IMG/VR virus record: IMGVR_UViG_3300012979_000032
Location: 28,915-92,914 of that record
Direction: 5' to 3' (one strand)
Length of the DNA stretch: 64,000 bases
Origin: a virus
Lineage: Duplodnaviria > Caudoviricetes
The notes below the pieces were generated by a model, which saw nothing but the letters and a program-made list of their open reading frames with translations, did not search any database and had not been told where the DNA came from. The position numbers and the translations under genes are program-made. Shown here one piece after another: positions 6,536 to 57,699 of this stretch; position 1 is the stretch's first letter, and each line of letters begins with the position of its first letter.

Positions 6536-9500
6536 TTATACCTTTCTATTAGCATACTGAGCTGCCAAATTAACAAGGTCGCCAAAAGCTTCCTCAATTT
6601 GATTCTTATCAGTAACTGCAGGGAAGCTGGCTTCAATATGAACTTCTTGTTGTAAAGTTCCTTGATTTCCATTAACGCCAGAGGACATTAAAGAAATAAA
6701 GCCGCCTGCAGATGCTAAAGCATTCAAATCAATTACGCTAGCAATTTGACGTAAGATTCCAACAGAAGCAAGCATATTAGCAGTATCTTCTGCGTTAAGA
6801 ACGAGTTCCTTCTGATGCAGATAAGCAAGACGTCCTTCAGATCCCCATGCACCAGTATATCCACCAGTGTCATAACCTTCTGGATTCTCTTGGCGCTCCC
6901 TTCTTCTTGCTTCAATTTCAGCAAGCACTCCGGGATCAATATCTAGATCTCCGATTTCGCCATAAGCGGTTAAGAAGTCAAGTAATACGCCTAACATAGC
7001 ATCAGTTTCAGCTTCCATGGTAGCCATAGCCTAAGAATAATTATTTACCATGTTAGTTACTGCGTCTCCAATAGAAGTGATCTGACTGACAATCTCAGTT
7101 GCGGCATCAGTGATATCATCAGCAGCATCTTCAGCCTCTTGAGTTGCTGCTTGAATATTACCCAGTAACGCAGATGCCAAATCCTAAGTTTCAACACCCG
7201 CTGCTGCGTTCGCGGCCGCAATTTGTTGTCTCATTGTAGAGTAAGCAGTAACAAGACGTCCAATCAAGCTTTCTCCAGATGGATGCGCAGGATCAGAACC
7301 AAAAACAGCTTCATTAAAGTTCTAGTAGAACTCTTCTTGAGATTCAAATCCGCTGACTTGAGAAAGAACTGTCTAATTCCATTTAGTAACATAATTCTGT
7401 TCCGCAGATAGCTTATATCCAGTATATTTACTAAAGTTAGTCCAATCTTTCTCATAGAGTTCTTTATTGTTACCAAGAACTTTATTCATTTCACTATTAT
7501 AATACTCCATTTGAGCAGTATAATGTTCAGTAATGCGCTGGACTTCGGCTTGGTACTTTTCTTCAGTGTCGTAAATTGTAGTATCAATCGCCGCAATTTC
7601 ACTTAACATCTGAGAAGAAAGATTAGCCATATTTTCGCTTAAGCCAGTGATATATTCATCATTTGCTTTTTGCATTTCATATAGTCTATCAGCATAATCA
7701 GACTCAGCTTTAGCAACAGCATCTTCATCCGCAGTATATACGTAGTTATAGTTACCTTCAGAATCACGTCTCATAGTTACTTGGCTCTTAGCATTTTGGA
7801 CTTCATCCAATGCAATTTCTGCCATTTTAAGATCTAATTTCTTCTGGAGATAATCTAGATCGTAAGCACTTAGCTCCTAATCACTTTCAAGTAAATTATT
7901 AAGCTCTTTCTGATATTTCAGGAGTTCTTTTTGTGCGCGTACATTAGAGGTACTATCAATCTTATCAGTGAGATCACGAGTCATTTTAGTGAGTTGATAA
8001 ATCTTTTCATAATCATCAACATAATTTTGATCTCGTTCATTTACCTTTGCAAAAGCATCTTCAAGTTCAGACAATCCTCCGGCTAAGCCACCAGACATCA
8101 TTTCCCCAATATCTCGGACTGCTGCTTCCATATTGCTTTGGAAAGCGTCGGCAGCTGCCTGGAGAGCCTCTTCCCAGGAGGAGAGGAAAGCTTCTTGAGC
8201 TTCATTCATATTATCTTGTGCGGCTTGGTAAGTATCTTTAGCAGCCTTTAATGCAGCAGCATCAATACCGCCTTCGGCGTAAGAAGCCTGCGCAGCTTCA
8301 TAGGCAGCCTTGGCCTCATCATATTCAGCTTTTACTGTGTCATATTTAGTTTTATTGGTTTCAAGCTTTGCAATAGATTGAGCAGCAATAGCATCGTTAA
8401 TACTCTTTAGCATAGTAGAATTAAATCCACTCATGGTTCTGCCAGTTAAGTCAATAATATTTCTATAAGTTGAAGTAATAGCTTGCGCATGTTCAACAGT
8501 AGAAATATAACGATCCATATCAGCATTGAATTCCTCAAATGCATTAGCCATATGTTCGATAGAATTGACCATTTGCTCAGACATTTGCTCTGAAGCATCC
8601 ATTAATCCTTCCATAATAGTTTGAATTAATTCGATATCTCCAGATTGCATTCCTGCATTAACGAGATCCTCTGAACTGATATTTCCGTTCATTAAGTCTT
8701 CTGCTGACCAAACAGTTCCTTCTGGACTATAAGCTTTAAGCAGATCATCTAAAGCAGATTTATGAGCATCAAACTGAGTCTATGCGATATCCATTTGTTG
8801 GCTCATTAATCCAATAGCCTCAGCTGCACTATAAGCATCGTCTTCAATGCGACTTAATTTATGTTCAAGATAGCCGAGTTGAGCTTCAGTTACTTCAAGA
8901 GCGGTATCAAGTTTGGTTTGAATCTGTCCGATAATATTATCATGCCATTCATTTAAGAAATCATCATATTCCATGCCAAGATCTTCAAGAAGCTCCATTG
9001 TTTCTTCATATTGTTCAAGAGCTTCTTTTGGATCATCAATTAAAGTTTGTTTCAAATAATCTTCATAACCAGAATAGTATTCGCCATCTTTGTTAGTCAT
9101 ATCAGAATATTTTTCATCTAACTCTTCTTGAGCTTCTGCTGACATGTTATTATATGAATCAATTGCTGCATTATATTTATCAATTTGAGAACTTAAAAAT
9201 TCATCATAATTATTGACATTTCCGTTACCATCAAAAGTCCAACCTGCTGATAAGGCAGCAGATAAGTCTTTCTTTCTCCATTCTTCTGCTTGGCGCATTT
9301 TTTCTTCAACAGCAGCGATTTGCTCTTTAAGAATCTTAGACTCCTATTGCATTGCACTAATGCGATTTTTGCCCCAAGCACGGTCTTCTTCTTTATTTAA
9401 GCGTTCATAGGCATCAGCTAAATCGTCGATAACATTATCAATTTCGTGGTAGCGTTCAATATTATCTTTTTTATTGATTTTATTAGCTCGACGAGGATCT

Positions 9501-12500
9501 CGACGGCCACCGCCGCCTCCTCCACCGCCGCCTCCACCTCCACCGCCGGTACCAGTTTTTTCGGCGCGCTTGGTGAAATTAGGAGAACTTCCCCCACTAT
9601 TTTTACCTTTCGGGACTTGCACAGAATAAGTTGTGGCAGTACCATTTTCAACGTCTTCATTGACTTGGTCAATTGTAATGGTTTTTGGTTGTCCATCTGC
9701 TCCAAGGACAGTTACTGGAACCGGAGAGGTGCTAATATGCTTTTTCAAACCTTCAGCATCCATTTCGACAGTTTCAAACTCTAATGGCTCCACGTCATAA
9801 CCCAACATATTCATTGCATCATTTGCAATAGCTACGGCTTCCTCAAAAGATTTTCCTGAAGCCATGGCATCGCTAACGACTCCGCTCCAGAATCCATTTA
9901 AGGTTGCATAGGCTTCATCTGTCCCGGTAATAACATCTCCAGCATTAAAATTAAGTTTACTAATATCATCAGCCAGTCCTGCCAATTCTGCTCTAGCTTC
10001 ACCGAAGTTCTTTTTTAATACATCTTCCGCAGCTCTAGACTGTAATTCATCCAAAGCTTTTTGCCCTTTTTCTCCAGCATTTTCAGCAGCAGTAGCTATT
10101 AATTCAAGGTTTTCTTCATTCTATAAGAAACTATCACTCAAAGCATTGGCTTGCTTCTCAGTCAATCCAAGGACATCTTTATATCCTTTCCGTAAACCTT
10201 TAGCTGCTTCTATCTAGTCTTCCATAGAACCAGTACCATCTTTTAAAGTTTTTGCCCACTTTTTACCGTTAGTGGTTAAATCTTTAAAGCCACGCTCCAT
10301 AGCCTTCAGCTAATTGGCATATTCGCGCTAAAGCTCAATAGCCTCTTCTTTAGTGATATTCATTTCTTCCATCATTTGCTAGACAGACTACATACCGCCA
10401 TCAGAATAATCGGAATCTCCACCCTCAGCAACCATTTTTTCAATGTAAGCATCCTAATCTTGAATACTGGCAAAACCAGCGTCTTTAGCTAATGCCAAAC
10501 GATTATCTGCCGCTACTTGCTTTCCAGTAGTGCCATCAGCAGCGTCATCAATTACTTCATTACCAGTTTCATATCCTGACGCGCGTGCATAGGCATCAGC
10601 ACCAGGCACTGTGGCCATTACAGTCTCTTGAGTATCGCCTTCTCCACGTACCCAATTACCATTAGCGTCTTTACTATAACCCATTTCCGTCATAGTAGCA
10701 TCATCATAGGAAAGACTATAACTACCATCAGCATTACGCTTATACCCTTGTAGTGCCATATATTCATCAGTTTGAGCCTAATTAGCCATTTGCATAAGAG
10801 CTTGTGCAGCTGCCTCTGCAGCTCCTGTTAAAGTATCTAAAGAAACAGCTGATAAATCTGCACCTTCCGCTAATCCAAGAGCGCTTCTAAGCTATTCTTG
10901 TTCAGCAACAGTTAAAGATTCAATACCAGAATCACGAGCCTTCTCTAAAACACTTAATTTCTCTTGCTCTTTCGTTATTGCCTGCATATTTTCAGCAGTA
11001 ATCTAACTTGCCATTTGCTAATTCTTAGAAGTGGTTTCAGCCATAGCACCTGCCCAAATATCATTAACAACGGTCTAAGCATCAGTTTCTTTACCTTCTG
11101 CAATTCCAAAACCGCCTTCTTGAGTATAAGACAATAAAGAAGAATCGATTCCTAAAATGGTCGCCAATAAAGCTCCCATAAACTCAGGATCATTTGTGAA
11201 TGTAGCCGCATCAGCGTCGGTTCTATGATAAACTCCTCTGTCGTCACGAGTTAATAAACCTTTTTGTACTAATACATCTCCTTCAGCCTAAGACATTGTA
11301 GCCAATTTTTCTGGAGTAAGATATTCATCAATAATTCTTCCTGGTTCTGCTAATAACTTAGGTAAGAGATCAGCATTTATATTAGACATAAATTCCTACG
11401 TGGTAGTTGTCTATAAGCCGTAAGCTCCATTGGTTGCTGAACCAGTCCAGTCTAAATAAGCCTAAGCTCCACTTGCTTTATAACTATTTAGATCAAAAGG
11501 ATTATAATTGAAATGTGACATTGCAGACCGCTTATCTTCACCAGTTGCTGTCATCCAAGACATAATCTATTCAGTAGTAGCTCCGGTATTGGCAGGATCA
11601 TTAATTAAAGCTAAATAGGTATTCTTTAATCCCTCAGCATCATTTTGCATCTAAGACAGTAAAGAAGCACTTTCTTCATCCATTAATGCTAAACGGGCAG
11701 ATGAAATTGCTTTAAATGTAGATACCCAAATATCATAAGTCTACTGAGCGGCATTTTGTTCAGAAGCAACTACACCAGCAACGCCCTCTATCATGATATC
11801 CTTAATTTGTCCCCAAGTTTTTGCAGCAGAAGCGCTTAGTAAAATACCTTCATTATCAATAACTTCTTGCATACGAGCAGTAATTTCAGCGCCAGTAGCA
11901 TTATCTCCTAGCTCTTGAATTACACGATCATAAACATCTGCTAATATACCACGCTAATAGTCACTCATACCTTCAATGGCATTAACATCTTCGTTAGCGA
12001 TAGTTTCCCAATAGGTATGCATATAGTCATCCATCACAGCATCTTGGTCAAATCTTGGCATGTTAGCCATACCTTCTTGCCATTCAACTATAATTTCATC
12101 AGTAATATTATTCGGATCATAACCTTTAGCAGTTAACCAAGCCTAGCTAGGATTATTTAGATCATATACACCATTTGTTTGAGACAAATATTGTCCATAA
12201 TTATTATACCATGACAGGGCATCTGTGCCACCTTCAGCATTTGAAAGTGTACGTCCCATAACACTATTATCATAATGCCATAGACCATCTTCTCCTCGAA
12301 CCATAGCACTCGAAGGACTAGTATCAAATTCAGCAAAGTCTGTTAGCATTGAAGCTTTTACAAGATCTCCAATACCGCCAGCTTTTATTTCAGAGAAAGC
12401 TCCTTCTGCGGCAGCTAAAGTAGCAGCTGCATAAGAAGTCCAATCGCCAGGGTCTGCCCCAGCTAGACCATCTCTAATACCGACTTCAACACCATCTACA

Positions 12501-15500
12501 ACATCATGTCCAATAGGAATCATTAAACGAGAAGGGGATTGAGTCTAGTAAGATTCTCTTGCGGCAGCTTCAGTTGCTGCTGCAGCCGGATTCCAATCTC
12601 CAGTATCAAAATTAGCCAATCCTTCGTTAATGCCAGCAGTCACGCCAGCGACAATATCAGTACCGATTTGTTCCCAATCATAAGCCTAAAAAGCAGTTTG
12701 CGCTTGAGTATAAGTCGCATCCGCTGCTCCATCAAAAACCTCCTAATCAGTAACAGTTTCTATAACTCTTTCTGAAGATGGGGCTTCTGGTAAAGGAGTT
12801 GAGGAAGAAGCTAACTCATATACACCATCTGCATTTTTTGTAACTGACTCATTTGCTTCAAGAGCTCCATAAAAAAGAATTTCATATTCTGCTGCCAATT
12901 CAGCATCATGCTATTTTAATTGCTCAATAAAAGCCTGAATAGCTTGAATCTAAGCTATATCTGCGTCAGTCTAAAAGTTCATTTGACCAATGGCGTCAAT
13001 GGCCAAACCCATTTCTGCTCGTCTCTGTGCAGTCGCACTATCTAACCATTCTTTAGTCTTATCATGTGTAACTGTTTCAGTACTTTTCCACCACAATGCT
13101 CCAGTCTCATGAGAAGTATCATAAGTTCCTGTTGCCTGTTGCATCATTTCTTCAACATTACCAGAGTCAAAATCTCTAATAAATTGAGCTGAAGCAGTAC
13201 CTGCATACTTTTCTCGTAAAGCCTATTCTCTATTTTTCTTTAGATTCTCTTCATAATTAACTGTAACAGTAATTTCAGTATCTTTAGTTAAATCAGCATT
13301 TTTTCCTTCCAAATAATTAACAACTGCAGTCATATCAACGCCAGTTTCACTAGTAAATCCTCGCAGTTCTTCGGCAGTAATTGTGCTTTCAGTTCCATCG
13401 GAAAGAGTTACTGTAATAGGATAATCATTTGGCAGTGCAGCTAAATCTGTTGCTAAATTATCAACTTCACCCTAAATAGTGCCTAAATTAGTTGAGAATG
13501 TTAATTGTCCAGCATTTAGCTAAATGCCATTTACAGCAGTAGAATCTGTATATCCACTTTCACCCTCAACATCCATGGTTACTTCGCCAGAGTCATTAGA
13601 GCTTAATCCATATCTAGCTAAAGTTTCTTCAATCTAGCCAAAATCGCCTTCATATTTAATAGTTTTTCCATCAAGACTAATCTTATCTACTTCTAACTAT
13701 AAGGCGCTTTGCTAACCTTCTGCCCCCCCAGCCAGTATTAATGAAATAGTTTTAGATCCAGGAGTTCCGCCAACAATAGCAGTATACTATTCAGTATAAT
13801 TACCATTAGTACCATTAAATGTAATAGTTTTTGTAGCCCCATCGGCAGTGCAAGAGGTATAAGTATCTGTATAAGTTTGGCCTTCAGTTCCAATAAAAGT
13901 AATTGTTTTAGTTTCATTATCAGCGGTGCAAGACTCATATGTAGTGGTATAGGTCTATCCTTCTGTACCAATAAAAGTGATGGTTCTTGTTGCTCCATCG
14001 GCAGTGCAAGCCAGAAATTCAGCAGTATACTATTCGCCATCAGTTCCCAAGAACGTAATAGTTCTTGTTGCCCCATCAGCCGTACAGCTTTCATAAACTG
14101 CCTAATAAGATTCACCCTCTGCTCCAATAATTGTAATAGTTTTTGTCCCTGGATCTTGAAGAATCTTAATTTTTCCTGCAGCTTCTTCATCATTAACTTC
14201 TGGTGTTAAAGTAAAAGATCTATCTTCTGTTAAAGAATCAATTTCATCATATACACTCTAAGCAATATCAACAGCTTCAATAGATAGTAAACTATTATAT
14301 TCTTTAGCTTTTTCATTATCTACCGCCATTCCAGCAAAAGCAGCTTCCATTGCAGCAGCTGTCTTTTTGCGGATAGCATCGGCAGAATCATCATCGTTTA
14401 AATTTTGTAAAATAGCCTGGATTCTTTCAGCACTAACTCCAGCTTCATATAATGATGTTTTTAGATCAGCAATATTCTCAAAACTTAGAGTATCAGCAGA
14501 TTCTAAATTATCTCTTATAGTGCTCATTGCATCAGAAGCACCAGATTTTTTAGTATTCCAAATTTCATCTTGGGCTTCTTTTGCGGCTATTGCTTTTTCT
14601 CGAGCCTTAGAATAGTAATCATCCTCAGCCTATCGCTTTTCCATCATTAAAGCTTTAAATGCCGCAGAATCTTCTGGATATCCAGCAATTCTAGCATCTA
14701 GCCATCTTGAATAAGCTTGATAAGAAGCTTCATACCACTCTTCATCGGACATGCTTAAATATTCTGTATAAAGATTTGGATCAATTTCTTTTAAAATTGT
14801 TAAATCTTCCGCAGTCATGCTTGCTCTGTTGGAAATCGCTTTTTCGAAGACTCCTTCATATTTAGCAGCCTCTCGCTCTAATTCAATAACTCGTTCAAGA
14901 ACGGCTTCGGCTTCCTCAATACCTTCACCGCTGGCTAAAGCCTCCTAATAAGCTTTCACTGCCTCTGCACAATATTCATATCCACTAGCTAAAGCAATTA
15001 ATGATTTAGAGTAAGTCTCTTGACTAATAGTATTATTAGACAACATAGCCTACAATTCTTCAACAGTTGTAGCTGTAGAAGCAATCATTTCTTCCAATTC
15101 TTGAGTAGCCACTGCCATCTATGCTGGGTCAGTTGCTTTCTAAACGAAATCAAATAAAGTTTCTAGTCTAGAAATATCTCCATTTTCGGCTTCTGCAATA
15201 ATTTCATCAATTATTTCTCCAGTATATCCAGCATTGGCAAGCATGGTTCGAAGAGCCTCATTCTTCTCATCGGTATATAAATCTTCAAACGCTTGAGCCG
15301 CGCCCTCTCTATCAGCATCATCCCAGTTAAATTTGGTAACAGCTTCAATGCCAGCAACATTTTTATAAGAATCTAATAATTCCTTCTAATCTAAAGCCAT
15401 TTGTTTAGTGGCTTCTCGCATTGCTTCTGCATCACCAATGAATTTACGACTTCCATCAGCCTATAAAGTAAAGAAATCTGCATATGCTTTATTAATTTTT

Positions 15501-18500
15501 ACTAAAGTATTATAATCTTCTTCGCTAACAATATCACCAAGTTTTAAATCTTTTGTAATTCTTGCCATTGCAGATAAATTATCTTTTAGTTTAGTAAAAT
15601 CTGGAATTGCTCCAGAAGCTTGACGCATTGTAGTAATAAATTCATCCCATTCGCCAGAAGCTGTATCAATGGAATAACCCATACCTTCAAAAGCAGCTTC
15701 AAACTGTTCAAATGCATCATAATCAGACCAATCGATCTAAGAAATTTGATCTAATAAAGCTGTTCTATCCTCTTCAGAAACATTTGCTTCTTCAAAGGCT
15801 TTCTCAATACCTAAATTAAGTTTTTTACCAATTTCTGCAATAGGACCTTTTTCTAATTCATTTATTGTATTGTCGAAATTTTTAAAAGCATTTAATGACA
15901 TGCTTTCAGACCAATCAAGATCTCCACCATCAGCATACTCACGATAGAATCCACCACTACCTTTATGCTCTTCTGCCAACGCATTCCATTCATCGACATA
16001 TGCTTTACGCATTTCTGCTCGCTTAGCCTTAGCGTCAGCTAAATCAACAAAACCTAAAGCTGTTAGCTGATCTTGAGTAAGAGCTTCCAAATCGGCGTCT
16101 GAGAAACCATTAATTTGGTCTCCTGTCATGTCATTCAAATTACCACGAGAACTCATTGCAGCAATTGCTTGCTAAGAATCCTTAGATATTCCTTCAATCT
16201 TTCCTTCTCGCAGATCAGTATAAACCTAACTTAATGTTTCTACCTAAGCATTTACAGCAGCATCGCCTTGACTAGATTTATACCAAGTTCTTAGCATAGA
16301 CTCAGTAACTTTAAAGTCTTCAGTTACATGTCCATCATCTCCAATATAACTATAAGTAAAAGAACCATCATCATTATATTGAATATCTACGCCCTATTTT
16401 CCAGCAGTTAAAGTAGCTGCATATTCTTGAGCCCATTGTTTTCTAGTCTCTGCATCAGTAGTAGAATCAAATTTATCTCCAGCCGCTGTTGCCGCTTCAG
16501 AATAAATTTTTGAAGCTCTGGCGCTAACGTCAGCTTGAGCATCTTCATTAACTATACTATTATAAATTTCATTAGCATTTAAAACGTTCTGAGCCGCCAA
16601 TTTCATGGCATCGTTTAATTGCTTATTGGCTTCAATAGTAGATTTAACTATATTTAGAATAGATTTTTTATAACTTTCGCTTTCACCTGTAAACTATTTA
16701 TCAATTAAATCTTTTAATGCAGAGTCCGTCATGGTGCCATTACTGTCTTCAAACTTCTTAACGATAGCATTAACTTTATCTTTTTCAGCTTTATTAGTTT
16801 GCTCTTTTACTTTATCATAAGTAAATAACCCGCCAAGAAGTCCTCCAACACCTCCGATTAAAGCGCCTGCGATTCCTCCAATAATATTACCAAGACCTGG
16901 AATAATAGTTCCTAAAGCGGCTCCGCCCCAAGCTCCACCTGCGGCTCCAGCAGCAGCAACACCTGCCGCCGTTGCCCAACGGCCTTTATCATTACTCTTT
17001 GTAGCAGCATCTAAATCTGCTCTTGCTCTTGCACTAGCAGCTTCAGCTTGTGCCAAATTAGCAGCTGATTGAGCTGTTAAAGTTTCTTGTAACTTATCAG
17101 ACTATGCTTGATCTATTCTCTTTTGTCCATCTTTAGTGAAAGTTATTTCACCATTTGTGCCAATGGTATAATCCTAACCTTCCATTAATCCAAGACTATT
17201 AATTAACTGTAAAGCAGCTTCATTCGTTTGAATTAAAGCTTCTTTCCATTCATCAGTACCAGCTATTAAAGAATCTAAGGTCTAACTTCCATCTTTATAG
17301 GAATCAAAAGTTGATAATAAATTATCATAACTCTCTTGAAGAATTTTATAATTTTCCTATAATGCTTCGGCGTCTGCTTGAGCCTATTCTGCTGCGATTT
17401 CTTCTTTTCGATAAGCTTTATCAATAGCATCTAAACCAGCAGTTAAAGCAAAACCAGCTAAATAAGCAACACCACCTAAAACGCCGCCAGTAGCAAACGC
17501 TGACACAGCACTGCTCGCAACAGACATAGTACTAGTAATTTTCTAAGCAGTACTTGCGCTTTCATCGCCTAAAGTGGCCATTAATGTAGATGCTTGAGAT
17601 AATCCGGCGCTAAATGACATAACAGCCTAAGAAGCTTTTTGCATTCCACTAGCAATTTTTGCGGCCTTTTCTTCGCGCATCTGTTCCATGGCTCGTCTTT
17701 GAGCCTCTTGCTCCTGAACTGTTGTCGCTTGAGTTGGAATTTGATTTGTACGCACAGCTTCTTCCCAATCAATCATGCCCTAAGCTTCGCCATGTGTTCT
17801 TCCTGCTCCGACGTAATCCTCTAATGCATTACCCGCCTCAAGATCTGCTCCTTTAGCTCCGTCAATAACATCTTGGATTTCTTTTTCAGCGGCGTTAGCA
17901 GCATTTACAATTTTCTATAAAGCTTTTTCAATATCTTCAATTTTAGTAACAGTACCTTCGCCAAAAGTCTTATTAATACTAGCCATTAATTGAGTACGAC
18001 CACTAACGTCATCGGGCGACATCTGTTTTAAAGCACTCGAATATTTATTTGCCATTGTGGTCTAATAAGCAGCATTAGACTATTTTTGTCTCAAATCTAA
18101 AAGACCTTGTACGCCATTGGATGCGCTATATCCCTCTGCTCTAGATAATATCCAATTAGCAGCTGCATCATTACTACGCACAAAAGTAGTACCATTTTTT
18201 CTGGTTCCTTTTTGAGCAGACCCTGCACGAATTACATTTTTAATATCAGCTGTAGAAGATTGTTTTTCAGCTTTAGCTAAAGCTTCTTTTTCTTGTCTTA
18301 AAGCTAATACTGCTGCCTGCTCTTCAGCCATGGCAGTAATGTCAGCCTAAGCTCTTGCTTTTTGAGCTGCTGTTAAACTACCTTCTGTAGATATCAATTG
18401 CTGTTTTGCCGCAAGCAATTTACTAGCAGCTTCGACAGAATAATATTCAGCAGAATCTTTTTTCCCGCTAGCCTCCAATTGAGACATAGTTTTTGCGTAA

Positions 18501-20188
18501 CCTGCTTGAGTATTCTTTATTTCCTTCTCAGCATTTACTTGAGCATAACTTTTAGTTTTTCCAGTTAATACTCCTTTTATTCCCGCGCCAACTTTGCCCA
18601 AGGCATTTTTTCCTTCAAACTAACCTGCCCAAGTATTTAATTTTAATAAACTATCACTAATACCGGACGTAATCTGCTAAGAAAATACTTTCGTAGCAAT
18701 CATTCCGATTGTGCTTAAAATACCTGGTAACCCACCGAAACCATTAGCTAAAGCTGTTACCGCTTTAGTCACGGCAGTAATACCATTAGTCATTTTAATA
18801 AAGCCTTTATCGTTCAAAAGAGTGGAAAATAATTCCTCTACCGCGGCTTTGCTTCTATTGGCTGCAGCCTCCCAAGACTCAGCATAAATATCTTGCTGTC
18901 TTTGCAAAGACCCATCAGCACCCTTGGCAGTATTCAAATTCTATTTCATACTGTCCCAATTATCCATCAGAGAAATAAGGGTTGTATACTGTCTTACTCC
19001 ACCAACCGTTTGAGCCAAAGCAGTTTTCTGCGCCATAGAAAGATTCTACCACTTTCCAGCTAAAGACTCTAAAATAGTATCCATATCTCGCATATTGCCA
19101 GTAGCATCTAAAATATTAACTCCAACTGTTTTTAGAGCACTAGAATATTTATTAAGATCAACACCATCTTCCAAGGTTTCTCCAAGAGATAAACCTTGTA
19201 ATCTTGAGAAAATAGTTCTTAGTCCAGTACCAACTGTATCAGCACTTTGACGAGTTTTAGAAACAATCGTTGCCAGTGCACTAGTCGCATAATCGTAAGA
19301 CAATCCAATTGTTTTACCAATTGACGCAAATTTTTCCAGACCAGCCGCAATTTCTTTTGTGCTAGAAGCAGTTGTTGCACCAAGAGCAGTCATAACATCA
19401 GCATAATGTTCCAATGACTTACTACCGTCATCGAAGTTATTCCAAATTGCTGTCATATAAGAAGAAACATCTTCCATATTTTCTTTAGTAACATTCGCCA
19501 TTTTTATAACAGCATCAGTACGCTTTTTTACTTCAGCATCGCTTAAACCCTGTTGATAGAAAATCAAAGACGCTTTTGCATAAGAATTTGTCGTTGTACT
19601 TAACTTTTGCGCACTTGCATTAGCCGCTTGAGCGAACTTCGCCATTTCAGCCGCGCTTTGACCAGTAACAATGCGAATATCATTCAAAGAACTATTTAAG
19701 TTTTTTGTATATGAAATAGCATCTGAAATAGCTTTAGTTACTCCCTAATACATCGTTGCAGAAATTTGGTACTAAGCAGTATTCTTCAATGTTCTAGCAA
19801 AAGATTGAACTAATCTATTTGCAGTTTTTAAAGGAACTTCTGTGTGAGCAACAGCAGTTGCCAAAGACATAAAAGCCTATTGTCCGGCTGTACCTGCTCT
19901 TAAAAACTAAGCACTAATTTCATTAACAGAAGTGCCGGCCTCGCGAAGATTTTTATTTAATACAGATAAATCTAATTTATTTGTATTTTGATTAAAAGCC
20001 CGATTTAAGCTTGACTCTAAAACTTTGGCGTTTTGTACCGCTTCATTTAACCCAAAATCTTCAAAGCCTCTGGAAGCCTAAGCCTTGCGCAAATTAGTTA
20101 AAGATGCTTCTAAAGACGAAATAGCTTTTTTAGCTGCGGTAATATCAGCGTCAATGCCCAATCGCACTTTTACTACATTCTCGGCCAT
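6536..20188 (-). CDS. Tape measure protein (~4550 aa, dozens of in-frame TAG)
   Basis: All long minus fragments from 6536 to 19687 are in one frame; ATG 20188 with AAAGGAG RBS, TAA 6536; N-terminal TMP-type region (IRIVTGQSAAEM...TVGTGLRTIFSRLQ); Ala/Glu-rich helical composition; follows tail tube and chaperone genes. Confidence 0.85.
13745..14150 (-). repeat. 78-bp (26 aa) tandem coding repeat, ~5 copies, inside the tape measure gene
   Basis: Units like TKTITFIGTEGQTYTDTYTSCTADGA. Confidence 0.85.
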
Positions 20189-37059: not shown

Positions 37060-37084
37060 ATTAGTGAAAAGGAGTGATAGACAA

Positions 37085-37960
37085 ATGTTAGATATTAAAT
37101 CTTATGTTATTAAGTGGAAGGAAGCTCTCAAGGAGAGAATTTCTAAGTTGATGCGCAAACCCGTTTTGGTTATTGTACAAATGGGTAATGTTGAGGCATC
37201 CAATAGGTATGTGCGCAATAAGGTTAAGGATGCTAATGAAGTTGGCATTGATGCGGTTGTAGCGCATTTTGAAGAAGATAGTTTCGAGACTATTGAGCAG
37301 TTTAAGGATAAGGTCACTGAGCTGGCGATGAATGGCGCCGACGGCATTATTGTGCAATTACCGCTGCCAGAGAAGTTTAATAATGTTAAGTATTTACTGG
37401 AAAATGTGCCAGCGCATATGGACGTTGATGGGTTAAGTGGTAAACCAGGAGCGCAAACTCCTTGCACCCCTCTTGGAATGATGACGTTTATTAATGATAA
37501 GAGATTGATTGAGAAGCCGTTTAAGAAGGCTTTGGTGATTGGCCGTAGCGAGTTGGTCGGAAGGCCAATGGCTAAGTTGCTTTTGGATAATGATTATACG
37601 GTTACGGTTGCGCATAGTAAGAGTGGTATGCATACAATCCAAGAGATGGCGCGACAGGCTGATTTGGTGGTTTGCGCGGTCGGCAAAGAGAAGTTCTTGG
37701 ACTGCACGCATATTAATGGCATTGTAATGGATGTCGGCATTAATTTTGATGCGGATGGCAAGATGTGCGGCGATTGCTATATTGGCGACCCTGAAGCGAA
37801 AACAACTGTGGATTTGCGGTCTCCGGTTCCGGGGGGCGTTGGACTACTTACACGATGCGCATTGATGGAAAATACGGTGCGCAGTTGCGAGTGGCAAGAA
37901 GAGGAAATGAGGAGATGCGAATATGAATTTACTTTACGAGAACCAGAGCAGAAAAATTGA
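37085..37960 (+). CDS. folD: Bifunctional methylenetetrahydrofolate dehydrogenase/cyclohydrolase
   Basis: YVRNK, DGIIVQLPLP, DVDG, PCTPLG, VIGRSELVGRP, DVGINF, GD, PVPGGVGLLT motifs. Confidence 0.95.
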   Translation: MLDIKSYVIKWKEALKERISKLMRKPVLVIVQMGNVEASNRYVRNKVKDANEVGIDAVVAHFEEDSFETIEQFKDKVTELAMNGADGIIVQLPLPEKFNNVKYLLENVPAHMDVDGLSGKPGAQTPCTPLGMMTFINDKRLIEKPFKKALVIGRSELVGRPMAKLLLDNDYTVTVAHSKSGMHTIQEMARQADLVVCAVGKEKFLDCTHINGIVMDVGINFDADGKMCGDCYIGDPEAKTTVDLRSPVPGGVGLLTRCALMENTVRSCEWQEEEMRRCEYEFTLREPEQKN

Positions 37961-38165: not shown

Positions 38166-38597
38166 TCTGTATTTTCCCGTAAATAAGACCCTACTACGTA
38201 GGGTCTTAGGATTGAAAAAAATATTTGGTGGGAGAATTGTCCAGACAGAAACGATTTTAAGTACTGAAAAAAGATTTTTCCCGAAATACACCCCCGGGTT
38301 TTGTTTTATCTGAGTGTAATGTATAAAAAGTATTGTCAGGTTTTCCAGAAAGTCTATTGTCGGCTTTTTGGACGCCGGGGGCAAAAATACCCCAGATACG
38401 CGGGAAGGTATGTATACATAAAATAACGATCGCAGGCGCGCGCACGGGTGTAGCGCGCCTTTTTTGCGTTACACAGAAGCTATGCATAAAAAATTTAACA
38501 AAAGTGTAACAAATTTGTAACAACTAAACATCCCGATACTCCCATCTATGTATTGTTAAATATTTGTTAATAAAATGTAACAATCTATCCATGCACC

Positions 38598-38640
38598 TGT
38601 GGATAAAGTTATCCACAATGTTATCCACAGGCGGGGATAA
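38598..38640. promoter_or_regulatory. DnaA box cluster
   Basis: TGTGGATAA 38598, TTATCCACA 38609, TTATCCACA 38621, degenerate CGGGGATAA 38632. Confidence 0.8.
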
Positions 38641-40210: not shown

Positions 40211-40361
40211 GGGCTCAGCTTCTGCATACCTATGCATAATAATACAACTGTCTCGCTGGCGCGCCTACGGTCCTGGCGCGCCATATTTGCCTTGTACGGA
40301 ACCCTACACAAAAAAGTGTTACAAACATTTAACAAATTAACAGAAACTAAACATCCCGAAA

Positions 40362-40694
40362 CCAAAAGAAACAGCCCTCGCTGTGTGCGGCTTGACCATC
40401 TCGCCTACCCAATCTAACCAGAGAGGGATGGGACTTGAACCCATGGCTCACACAGAGGGCTGTTCAGTGGGCAGGGCATTCACCCTCATCAGAGTCCGCT
40501 TGCGCTTCGCAGTAGTTATGCGCTACCACTTGTAAGACTCACCCAAATGCCCTTGCCTTATGCCTCTCGTCTTCACTTGCGTGGATGGAATTTCACCATC
40601 GACCATCGGCAAGGACTGTATGCGTCTTTGGTATCCAAGTTCTCACTGAGTGTCGACCCTCAGGCTTGGTAGCGATTCCGCATCCCCTCGCTGT
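40362..40694 (-). ncRNA. Putative ~330 nt structured non-coding RNA with tRNA-like T-arm
   Basis: Promoter TTGACA(40729-40724)-17-TATTAT; no RBS-led ORF; nested helices; AUGGG-UUCAAGU-CCCAU; closing stem plus U-run. Confidence 0.7.
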
Positions 40695-40850
40695 GATTAT
40701 ATAATAGCACACCCTTCGCGTTTTGTCAACACTTTTTAGAAAGAAAATAAAAAAAAGTTTTTTAGAAAAAAGGGTTGACATTCTGGGCAAAGTATGTTAT
40801 TATTATCATGTCAGGAGGGGAAAGCCTCCAAGAGAAAGGAAGTAAGAACA

Positions 40851-42659: not shown

Positions 42660-42771
42660 GTGTGTTTCCTCCTCTTTCAGCTGGGCTCTTGTCCCTTGCT
42701 GTGATTATATAATAACACAGCTTTACCGGTTTGTCAATACTTTTTTGAAAAAAAATTCGCTGATTTTTCAA

Positions 42772-57093: not shown

Positions 57094-57699
57094 ATGAACT
57101 CTCTCTTTTTTAAGCGCGAACTTGACCTGATTGTGGATGAAGACCTGCGAATGGCTGTGAAGTGCTATTTCGATGAAAAGGTTCCCAAGTATTTTTGGGA
57201 AATCGGCGCTTCCTCTACTGGAAAGTTTCACCCCATGTTTTCACAGGGTGAGGGTGGTCTGGTTCGCCACACCAAGGCTGTGGTGATGTTCGCTGAAGAA
57301 CTCCTGCGCATGTCCTCTTACGCCTACATGCCTGATGCTTACAAGGATTATGTGATTGCGGCTTGCCTGATTCATGATTGCGCCAAGTATGGCATGAGCG
57401 ATGAACTGGACAAGGGCGCATACAAGGAACATGCTCCCAATGGCGCAAAGATGTTCGACCTGTTCATGCTGGAATCCTATGGAGTCCATGCCCCTGAAAA
57501 GCTCCTTGATGCTGTGCGCACCCACATGGGGCAGTGGTCTGAGAGGGAAGACAAGCCCTTCTCCCCCATTGATCGCTGTGTTCACATGGCTGACTACATG
57601 GCTTCGCGCTCCTTCCTTGACATCCCTTCCATTTGGGATGAATGGGAAATCGCTGATGCTGAAATCAAGCAGGCCAAGGCGCACCCCTTTGAATTTTAA
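57094..57699 (+). CDS. HD-domain phosphohydrolase
   Basis: GGLVRHT...LIHDCAK...H...HMG...HMADY. Confidence 0.9.
   Translation: MNSLFFKRELDLIVDEDLRMAVKCYFDEKVPKYFWEIGASSTGKFHPMFSQGEGGLVRHTKAVVMFAEELLRMSSYAYMPDAYKDYVIAACLIHDCAKYGMSDELDKGAYKEHAPNGAKMFDLFMLESYGVHAPEKLLDAVRTHMGQWSEREDKPFSPIDRCVHMADYMASRSFLDIPSIWDEWEIADAEIKQAKAHPFEF

Follow-up and report, generated by a model that had tools for sequence, protein, structure and literature searches.

A predicted early phage RNA with a tRNA body in rotated order: a YrlA-type tRNA mimic without Ro60 features

To our knowledge, the only non-coding RNAs with well-documented tRNA mimicry are the Y-RNA-like RNAs that function together with Ro60. In mascRNA/MALAT1 and in the TLS of plant viruses, a longer RNA ends in a tRNA-shaped structure that attracts tRNA enzymes or shields the 3' end. 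Within the Y-RNA-like group, the type relevant here is YrlA (Y RNA-like A, Rfam RF02553), for which our sources are Chen et al. 2014 (PMC4201824) and Wang et al. 2018 (bioRxiv 10.1101/312249). Enzymes that act on tRNA also modify the tRNA-like domain of YrlA, for which the proposed roles are protection of the RNA or the binding of a partner; a GNCGAAN0-1G motif near the 5' end is the likely contact with Ro60 (PMC4201824). The domain has no CCA end, and the stem equivalent to the anticodon stem is kinked (10.1101/312249). Phages are known to carry YrlA RNAs (PMC4201824).

The RNA considered here belongs to the early region of a large phage of the gut/rumen type. Judged from its one sequence, it is a real and somewhat unusual feature, a YrlA-type tRNA mimic that lacks the Ro60 features. 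Since the RNA is a single orphan sequence, this claim is structural rather than functional.

The locus and its predicted transcript

The window, i.e., the whole stretch of 64,000 nt that was analyzed, comprises bases 28915-92914 of a 92.9-kb IMG/VR record, which is judged to be about 52% complete, so that roughly half of the genome is absent from protein searches. In the left 36 kb of the window, the minus strand carries the late and structural genes, such as those for portal, terminase, and tail proteins. The early region, at about 38.6-58 kb, consists of some 50 small cassettes, each with a consensus promoter (TTGACA-17-TATAAT), a leader of 20-57 nt, a strong Shine-Dalgarno (SD) sequence, and a short ORF. 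Several genes within positions 37000-61200 have two or three tandem promoters, 120-190 nt apart (Table 1).

In a pattern scan, the promoter of the RNA matches the consensus at 11 of 12 positions. This promoter, together with the first transcribed bases, is found again at eight or more other early cassettes, and one of its near-identical counterparts, at 42737, stands before a protein gene of the usual kind, which it drives. There is no upstream gene that would be co-transcribed; the promoter adjoins a divergent gene. The stretch from 37 to 61 kb holds roughly 50 cassettes with perfect or near-perfect TTGACA-17-TATAAT promoters. Of those with a single promoter, this one alone has no SD-led ORF within 60 nt, and the first SD-like match after its promoter lies 335 nt downstream and is the terminator itself. 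Translation of the RNA in three frames yields short frames only, none of them with an SD sequence. Membership in the early promoter family and the lack of an SD-led ORF thus provide good support, from the sequence, for a promoter-to-terminator non-coding unit of about 333 nt that runs from 40694 to 40362; a genuine gene for a non-coding RNA is the most likely reading of the locus. A preliminary description of this DNA had already given the RNA a promoter of its own and no reading frame led by a ribosome-binding site, and both points are borne out by the promoter family, the cassette scan, and the three-frame translation.

It is scarcely credible that the locus is instead a small protein-coding gene or a permuted or two-piece tmRNA (for the latter, see below). 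An ATG frame of 27 codons, which lengthens to 52 codons if TAG is read through, could be taken for a gene; however, this frame has no SD sequence, whereas every neighboring gene has a strong one.

The leader motif CACAGCGAGGG at the predicted 5' end is also present in other early cassettes. Given its second copy in the long stem (Table 1), the 5' copy could enter into competition at the 5' strand of that stem. A co-transcriptional switch of this kind was considered and set aside, since the folding of truncated RNAs gave no clean alternative structure.

Table 1. Positions of the features of the RNA, and of the tandem promoters elsewhere in the early region, in window coordinates
Feature	Position	Strand	Sequence, basis or remark
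UP-like A/T-rich tract	40730-40775		upstream of the RNA promoter
Sigma-70/sigma-A type promoter	40701..40729	-	-35 TTGACA 40724-40729, 17-nt spacer, -10 TATTAT 40701-40706; pattern scan
Predicted primary transcript, non-coding	40362..40694	-	~333 nt; ends inferred from promoter and U-run
11-nt leader motif	40685..40695	-	CACAGCGAGGG; transcript 5' end; exact copy at 40375-40385 in the 3' strand of the long stem (direct repeat D1)
5' arm	40465..40694	-	~230 nt; holds the CUGAG/CUCAG, GAGUC/GACUC and AGGGCAUU/AAUGCCCU stems and the CGCAUAA hairpin
8-bp pair	40546-40553 with 40473-40480		AGGGCAUU/AAUGCCCU
Putative degenerate second permuted module	40534..40629	-	model R1, weak match
Putative second module, T-like part	40584-40600	-	GAUGG-UGAAAUU-CCAUC
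Putative second module, hairpin	40574-40583	-	CAC-GCAA-GUG
Putative second module, D-like part	40555-40571	-	GAC-GAGAGGCAUAA-GGC
CGCAUAA hairpin	40511-40527	-	GGUAG-CGCAUAA-CUACU; 5-bp stem, 7-nt loop, CAU in anticodon position
Long stem, 5' strand ('anticodon-stem' equivalent)	40449..40464	-	AACAGCCCUC-UGUGUG, 10+6 bp; inverted repeat I1; MFE of full RNA and of domain
Variable-loop equivalent	40445..40448	-	AGCC, 4 nt; sequence; ARAGORN drawing of re-permuted construct
T-arm	40428..40444	-	AUGGG-UUCAAGU-CCCAU; canonical T-loop U54 U55 C56 A57 A58
Loop-sealed acceptor equivalent	40408..40427	-	CCC-UC-UCU-GGUU-AGA-UU-GGG; MFE structures; aligns to the 'AS' hairpin of the YrlA model
U8-A9, D-arm and G26	40388..40407 (D-arm 40389-40405)	-	D-arm GGC-GAGAUGGUCAA-GCC; sequence; YrlA-model alignment; ARAGORN
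Long stem, 3' strand, and U-run	40359..40387 (pairing part 40370-40387)	-	CACACA-GC-GAGGGCUGUU, then UCUUUUGGUUU; predicted intrinsic terminator
Tandem promoters of other early genes	50087/50279; 52608/52729/52866; 55575/55720; 58445/58640

The 3' domain as a rotated tRNA body

The tRNA-like domain is formed by the 3' ~100 nt of the RNA, in which the parts of a tRNA occur in the order variable loop, T-arm, sealed acceptor, U8-A9, and D-arm, with no anticodon loop. In the minimum free energy (MFE) structure, whether of the full RNA or of the domain alone, the T-arm, the closed acceptor, and the D-arm make a three-way junction within the long stem. This stem, the equivalent of the anticodon stem, has 16 bp in total (6+10) and is kinked by a GC bulge. 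The acceptor-like hairpin has six Watson-Crick pairs, a 2x2 internal loop, and a GGUU loop; consequently, there is neither a free end nor a CCA. The MFE z-score of the 3' 100 nt is -2.77.

The nucleotides that hold the elbow of a tRNA together are all kept in the sequence (U8, A14, G15:C48, G18 G19, A21, G26, U54 U55 C56, and A58). The D-arm supplies A14, G15, G18 G19, and A21 of this set, and the final C of the AGCC variable loop could make the Levitt pair with G15 in the D-loop. Furthermore, when the domain was re-permuted, with the acceptor loop cut open and a 7-nt loop placed on the uppermost 5 bp of the long stem, ARAGORN called a 75-nt tRNA with each of the three loops that were tried, and it called a tRNA in none of 1000 shuffled re-permuted constructs. 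By these measures of sequence and predicted folding, the 3' domain amounts to a complete, rotated tRNA body that ends in a terminator-like stem and a U-run. An L-shaped fold in three dimensions is what we infer for it. The stem is rich in G+C and the U-run follows directly, and a pattern scan called a terminator-like site on the inner hairpin plus the T-run; the long stem and the U-tract probably double as an intrinsic terminator.

The T-arm of this domain had been recognized at the same place in the preliminary description, which took the RNA for a tRNA mimic distinct from canonical tRNA, tmRNA, and RNase P RNA. This view holds; ARAGORN makes no call, and no Rfam family reaches its gathering score. 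Moreover, it is strengthened, because the 3' domain proves to be a complete tRNA body: the D-arm, U8-A9, and the loop-closed acceptor hairpin had been overlooked, as had their position inside the 6+10 bp stem that runs into the U-tract. The CCCUCUC that follows the T-arm had been thought able to pair with an upstream GAGAGG; in the MFE structure, it pairs locally with AGA..GGG instead and so gives the closed acceptor-like hairpin.

YrlA is the only Rfam family with the permuted topology of this RNA. In a cmscan search, the YrlA model aligns to the RNA over its full length with 23.4 bits against a gathering score of 69, and the E-value of the match is 0.013 for a search space of 551 nt but rises to 0.65 for one of 28 kb. 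As in YrlA, the RNA has a V region, a T-arm, an acceptor closed by a loop, and a D-arm, with a closing stem in the place of the anticodon arm. In addition, the two have in common the retained tertiary nucleotides of tRNA, the lack of a free CCA end, the kink in the stem equivalent to the anticodon stem, and their occurrence in phages. However, the T and D sequences of the RNA differ from the near-invariant ones of YrlA, and its D-arm, with a 3-bp stem and an 11-nt loop, is of the kind found in class II tRNAs rather than in YrlA. YrlA RNAs are 80-130 nt long, with their ends paired in a Ro60-binding stem, whereas the RNA is about three times longer, at ~333 nt, and carries a 5' arm of 230 nt. 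Folding indicates that its 5' end takes no part in the closing stem, and this stem runs into the terminator, unlike that of YrlA, which is the Ro60-binding helix.

Given the YrlA topology, the full-length alignment to RF02553, and the known occurrence of YrlA RNAs in phages (PMC4201824), one could suppose that the RNA is a genuine Y RNA of the YrlA class, which would bind Ro60/Rsr of the host and thereby redirect or block host RNA decay. This is very unlikely. A regular-expression search found no GNCGAAN0-1G motif in the 361-nt stretch 40340-40700, although a motif of this type would be held by 20% of shuffles. No Ro60/TROVE protein was found in the 92.9-kb record (at ~52% completeness; Pfam scan of 46 ORFs, each 140-800 aa long), and none was found in 20 related phages, of which 15 are at least 90% complete. 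These absences, the score of 23.4 rather than 69 bits, a terminal stem that is a plain terminator helix, and a length three times the usual one led to the rejection of the RNA as a member of YrlA. The RNA, which had been put forward as a new tRNA mimic, is new only in part: it is without the Ro60 features of the YrlA-type Y RNAs, but its architecture is already theirs.

Other known RNAs come less close. Like a canonical tRNA (RF00005), the RNA has the cloverleaf elements and the elbow contacts, except for the anticodon loop; unlike a canonical tRNA, it has its parts rotated and its acceptor sealed. A tRNA gene was rejected, since ARAGORN finds none in the window or on the RNA in its natural order and the Rfam tRNA model scores 15 bits against a cut-off of 29. 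Because of the rotated order, the sealed acceptor, and the missing anticodon loop, the RNA would not be chargeable and could not decode as it stands.

With tmRNA, the RNA shares a tRNA-like domain joined to a long domain that is not tRNA, and a permuted gene order is known for tmRNA as well. A related phage does encode a tmRNA (L076), and the order of 5' domain, stem, T-arm, acceptor, D region, and stem can be read as that of a permuted tmRNA. Yet ARAGORN, which is able to detect permuted tmRNAs, calls nothing. The traits of a tmRNA, namely the missing D-stem, G3:U70, the CCA end, and the tag frame, are all lacking in the RNA: it has a full D-arm, G3-C70 at the third acceptor pair, no CCA, and no alanine-resume tag with a typical degron end. 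A tmRNA, whether one-piece or permuted, was rejected on these grounds. The tmRNA of the relative (phage G019, L076:673-985, plus strand) is a one-piece molecule with the tag ANYEYRMAA and adjoins a tRNA cluster.

The RNA has a weak match to the Rfam mascRNA model (cmscan). Unlike the RNA, mascRNA/MALAT1 and the plant-virus TLS, which come from eukaryotes or RNA viruses, have an open acceptor whose end undergoes processing or aminoacylation. Finally, a fragment of a host tRNA gene of the kind found at attP sites was rejected: it would leave the D-arm, the sealed acceptor, and the closing stem unexplained, and no integrase family was found among the 46 ORFs in the Pfam scan.

The 5' arm

Structure above the level of chance is confined to the 3' 100 nt, as the fold z-scores are +0.46 for the middle part of the RNA, -0.94 for the 5' part, and -0.51 for the whole. 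In 380 nt, two perfect 8-bp inverted repeats were found against about one expected by chance. The 5' arm has no match in Rfam. Thus, of the nested stems that had been noted earlier, all are present at their coordinates and the long stem appears in the MFE structure; those of the middle part are at the level of chance by both the z-scores and the count of inverted repeats.

The same is true of the CGCAUAA hairpin, on which the earlier suggestion of a decoy had been built. In that scheme, the hairpin and the T-arm together would lure anticodon nucleases or toxins of the VapC type. Indeed, the hairpin exists, with a 5-bp stem, a 7-nt loop, and CAU in the position of an anticodon. Early phage genes, moreover, often counter defence. 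However, the hairpin has G at position 33, where tRNAs have U33, and its loop is closed by a G-U pair; its 5' strand can pair just as well, over 8 bp, with 40667-40674; and there is no excess of stability in the region. In addition, some 65 nt separate it from the tRNA-like fold, in which the 'anticodon stem' is loopless, and some hairpin with an anticodon-like loop is to be expected by chance in 330 nt. Because the hairpin is outside the tRNA-like fold and at chance level, the decoy idea is unsupported, and it is given hardly any credence here.

A putative second permuted module, degenerate in form, may be seen within the 5' arm (Table 1). With filters off, model R1 matches it over its full length with 10.1 bits (E-value 0.003 within the transcript and 0.87 window-wide), a score at the background level both of the window and of phage tRNA clusters.

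Relatives, origin, and possible role

No homologue of the RNA was found by blastn against 50,697 phage records, by blastn and nhmmer on 70 loci, or by scanning 185,579 prokaryote genomes for a T-loop combined with a D-loop. Model R1 was likewise negative on 1.27 Mb of syntenic DNA from 67 relatives, on the loci around distant relatives of the neighboring gene (metagenomes and IMG/VR), and, with filters off, on the tRNA clusters of relatives. Exact and degenerate patterns in IMG/VR matched only tandem tRNA junctions or coding DNA, and blastn together with model R1 on 40 whole genomes of related phages matched only the T-arms of real tRNAs. Consequently, the collection of homologues that had been recommended for a covariation analysis came up empty.

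In Logan/ENA assemblies, 25 relatives of the neighboring 121-aa protein were found, at 52-99% identity. Comparison of the terminase (65-84% identity) places the phage in a clade whose members are 130-200 kb in size and rich in tRNA genes, one of them also carrying a tmRNA. The early regions of these related phages are hypervariable and share almost no genes with that of the present phage, so that the orphan status of the RNA is unsurprising.

The T-arm of the RNA is identical at 17 of 17 positions to that of a tRNA-Lys(UUU) of a related phage (L071:1502-1518), and this identity suggests that the module was built from the tRNA genes of the clade itself. If it was derived from them recently, the module might be young or neutral. 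Alternatively, the RNA could be a relic: rearranged pieces of clade tRNAs, the 3' half of one and the 5' part of another, would have come to lie in an early cassette and, whether transcribed or not, would have no selected function save perhaps termination. Besides the identical T-arm, a T-arm followed by a D-arm is what a junction of tandem tRNA genes looks like, and such junctions are the sole matches of this kind to the IMG/VR patterns; the lack of a known homologue and the hypervariability of the early regions of related phages are also in keeping with a relic. However, a tandem junction would not yield complementary acceptor strands, nor would it have a 16-bp stem closing it precisely at positions 26/27 and 43/44. 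Furthermore, all of the nucleotides for tertiary contacts are intact, and the unit has an intact consensus promoter and a terminator. A relic is regarded as unlikely.

Another degenerate tRNA-like element lies between early genes of a related phage (G032; L072:1490-1600, minus strand). It has a GGGGGG...CCCCCC acceptor, a T-arm AUGGG-UGCAAGU-CCCAU with G55, and no clean D-arm; ARAGORN does not call it, and it has no relatives among 41 genomes. It was rejected as a relative of the RNA, with which it has two short motifs in common; it is likewise an orphan, and the motif that they share does not define a family. Two odd tRNAs were also encountered, one in a terminase-related phage (L081:1034-1105) and one in a 373-kb viral contig found through the T-loop/D-loop pattern (L103:1716-1830). 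One of the two has a four-base anticodon call (gtag), and the other, for which ARAGORN makes no call, resembles a tRNA whose anticodon loop has taken up an insertion of ~30 nt.

The model toward which the evidence leans, with a confidence slightly better than even, is that of an early, stand-alone non-coding RNA of ~333 nt, in which the permuted tRNA mimic at the 3' end is both a protective cap and a handle and the 5' arm carries the activity. In this model, the host RNA polymerase would transcribe the RNA early from its stereotyped sigma-70-type promoter. The 3' domain would fold into the L-shape of a tRNA, and the cell would therefore treat the 3' end of the RNA as a tRNA body. Such an end would shield the RNA from 3' exonucleases. 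In addition, a tRNA-binding factor, from either host or phage, could dock on the elbow and the acceptor/T minihelix, which would thus be the handle; candidates would be a modification enzyme, RNase P, or another partner, by analogy with the effector-binding module of Y RNAs. The specific activity would then reside in the poorly structured 230-nt 5' arm. That the RNA is transcribed, folds in three dimensions in this way, terminates at its own stem, and has a partner and a function is what we infer.

A more specific version of this cap-and-handle model, which is bold and rather improbable, would make the RNA a Y-like RNA that is independent of Ro60. The sealed tRNA body without an anticodon, taken from the phage's own tRNA genes, would be a self-terminating handle that, early in infection, either delivers the 230-nt effector arm to a host tRNA-binding factor or titrates that factor, which might, for example, belong to tRNA-sensing defence or to RNA decay. 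If the handle does act in either way, the RNA would stand alone as a new class of phage RNA for host takeover. More generally, if the cap-and-handle model is true, a rotated tRNA body without Ro60 would be a portable handle of repeated evolutionary origin, in this case apparently out of the phage's own tRNA genes, and a single RNA with a strong promoter would offer a simple system for finding the proteins or other molecules that bind a tRNA-shaped domain.

The preliminary description had also raised a link to translation control in a recoded phage, and no connection was found between the RNA and the recoding of TAG in the late genes. The late genes (window 1-36975; G000:1-28914, L164, L165) require that TAG be read as an amino acid; with TAG as Q, the terminase and the portal become whole and giant ORFs appear, such as that at window 6539-20188 (~4550 aa). 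In the early region, the standard code applies, and the G+C content is 10 points higher than in the late region. The 92.9-kb record contains no suppressor tRNA and no tRNA at all.

Several other features of the window may be mentioned. A FolD-like gene for methylene-THF dehydrogenase/cyclohydrolase lies at the late/early boundary (window 37064-37960, plus strand); as a guide to the host lineage, it gave no close relative. The early region includes a gene for an HD-domain protein (window 57094-57699, plus strand), and the record has a gene for a 5'-nucleotidase of the NT5C type. A 52-nt direct repeat, rich in TGTAACA/TGTTACA, is present at window 38488-38539 and 40311-40362 with 77% identity between the copies, and the latter copy begins exactly where the U-run of the RNA ends. 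Each copy is followed by a GC-rich hairpin (GGCGCGCC...), and the two bracket ~1.8 kb with four small early genes; the repeat may be a site for the binding of a regulator or for recombination. Three perfect matches to the DnaA-box consensus (TGTGGATAA, TTATCCACA, and TTATCCACA) fall within 32 nt at window 38598-38629, and two other, variant boxes occur in the 64 kb. The cluster is located at the late/early boundary, where the cumulative GC skew turns, and is a candidate for the origin of replication.
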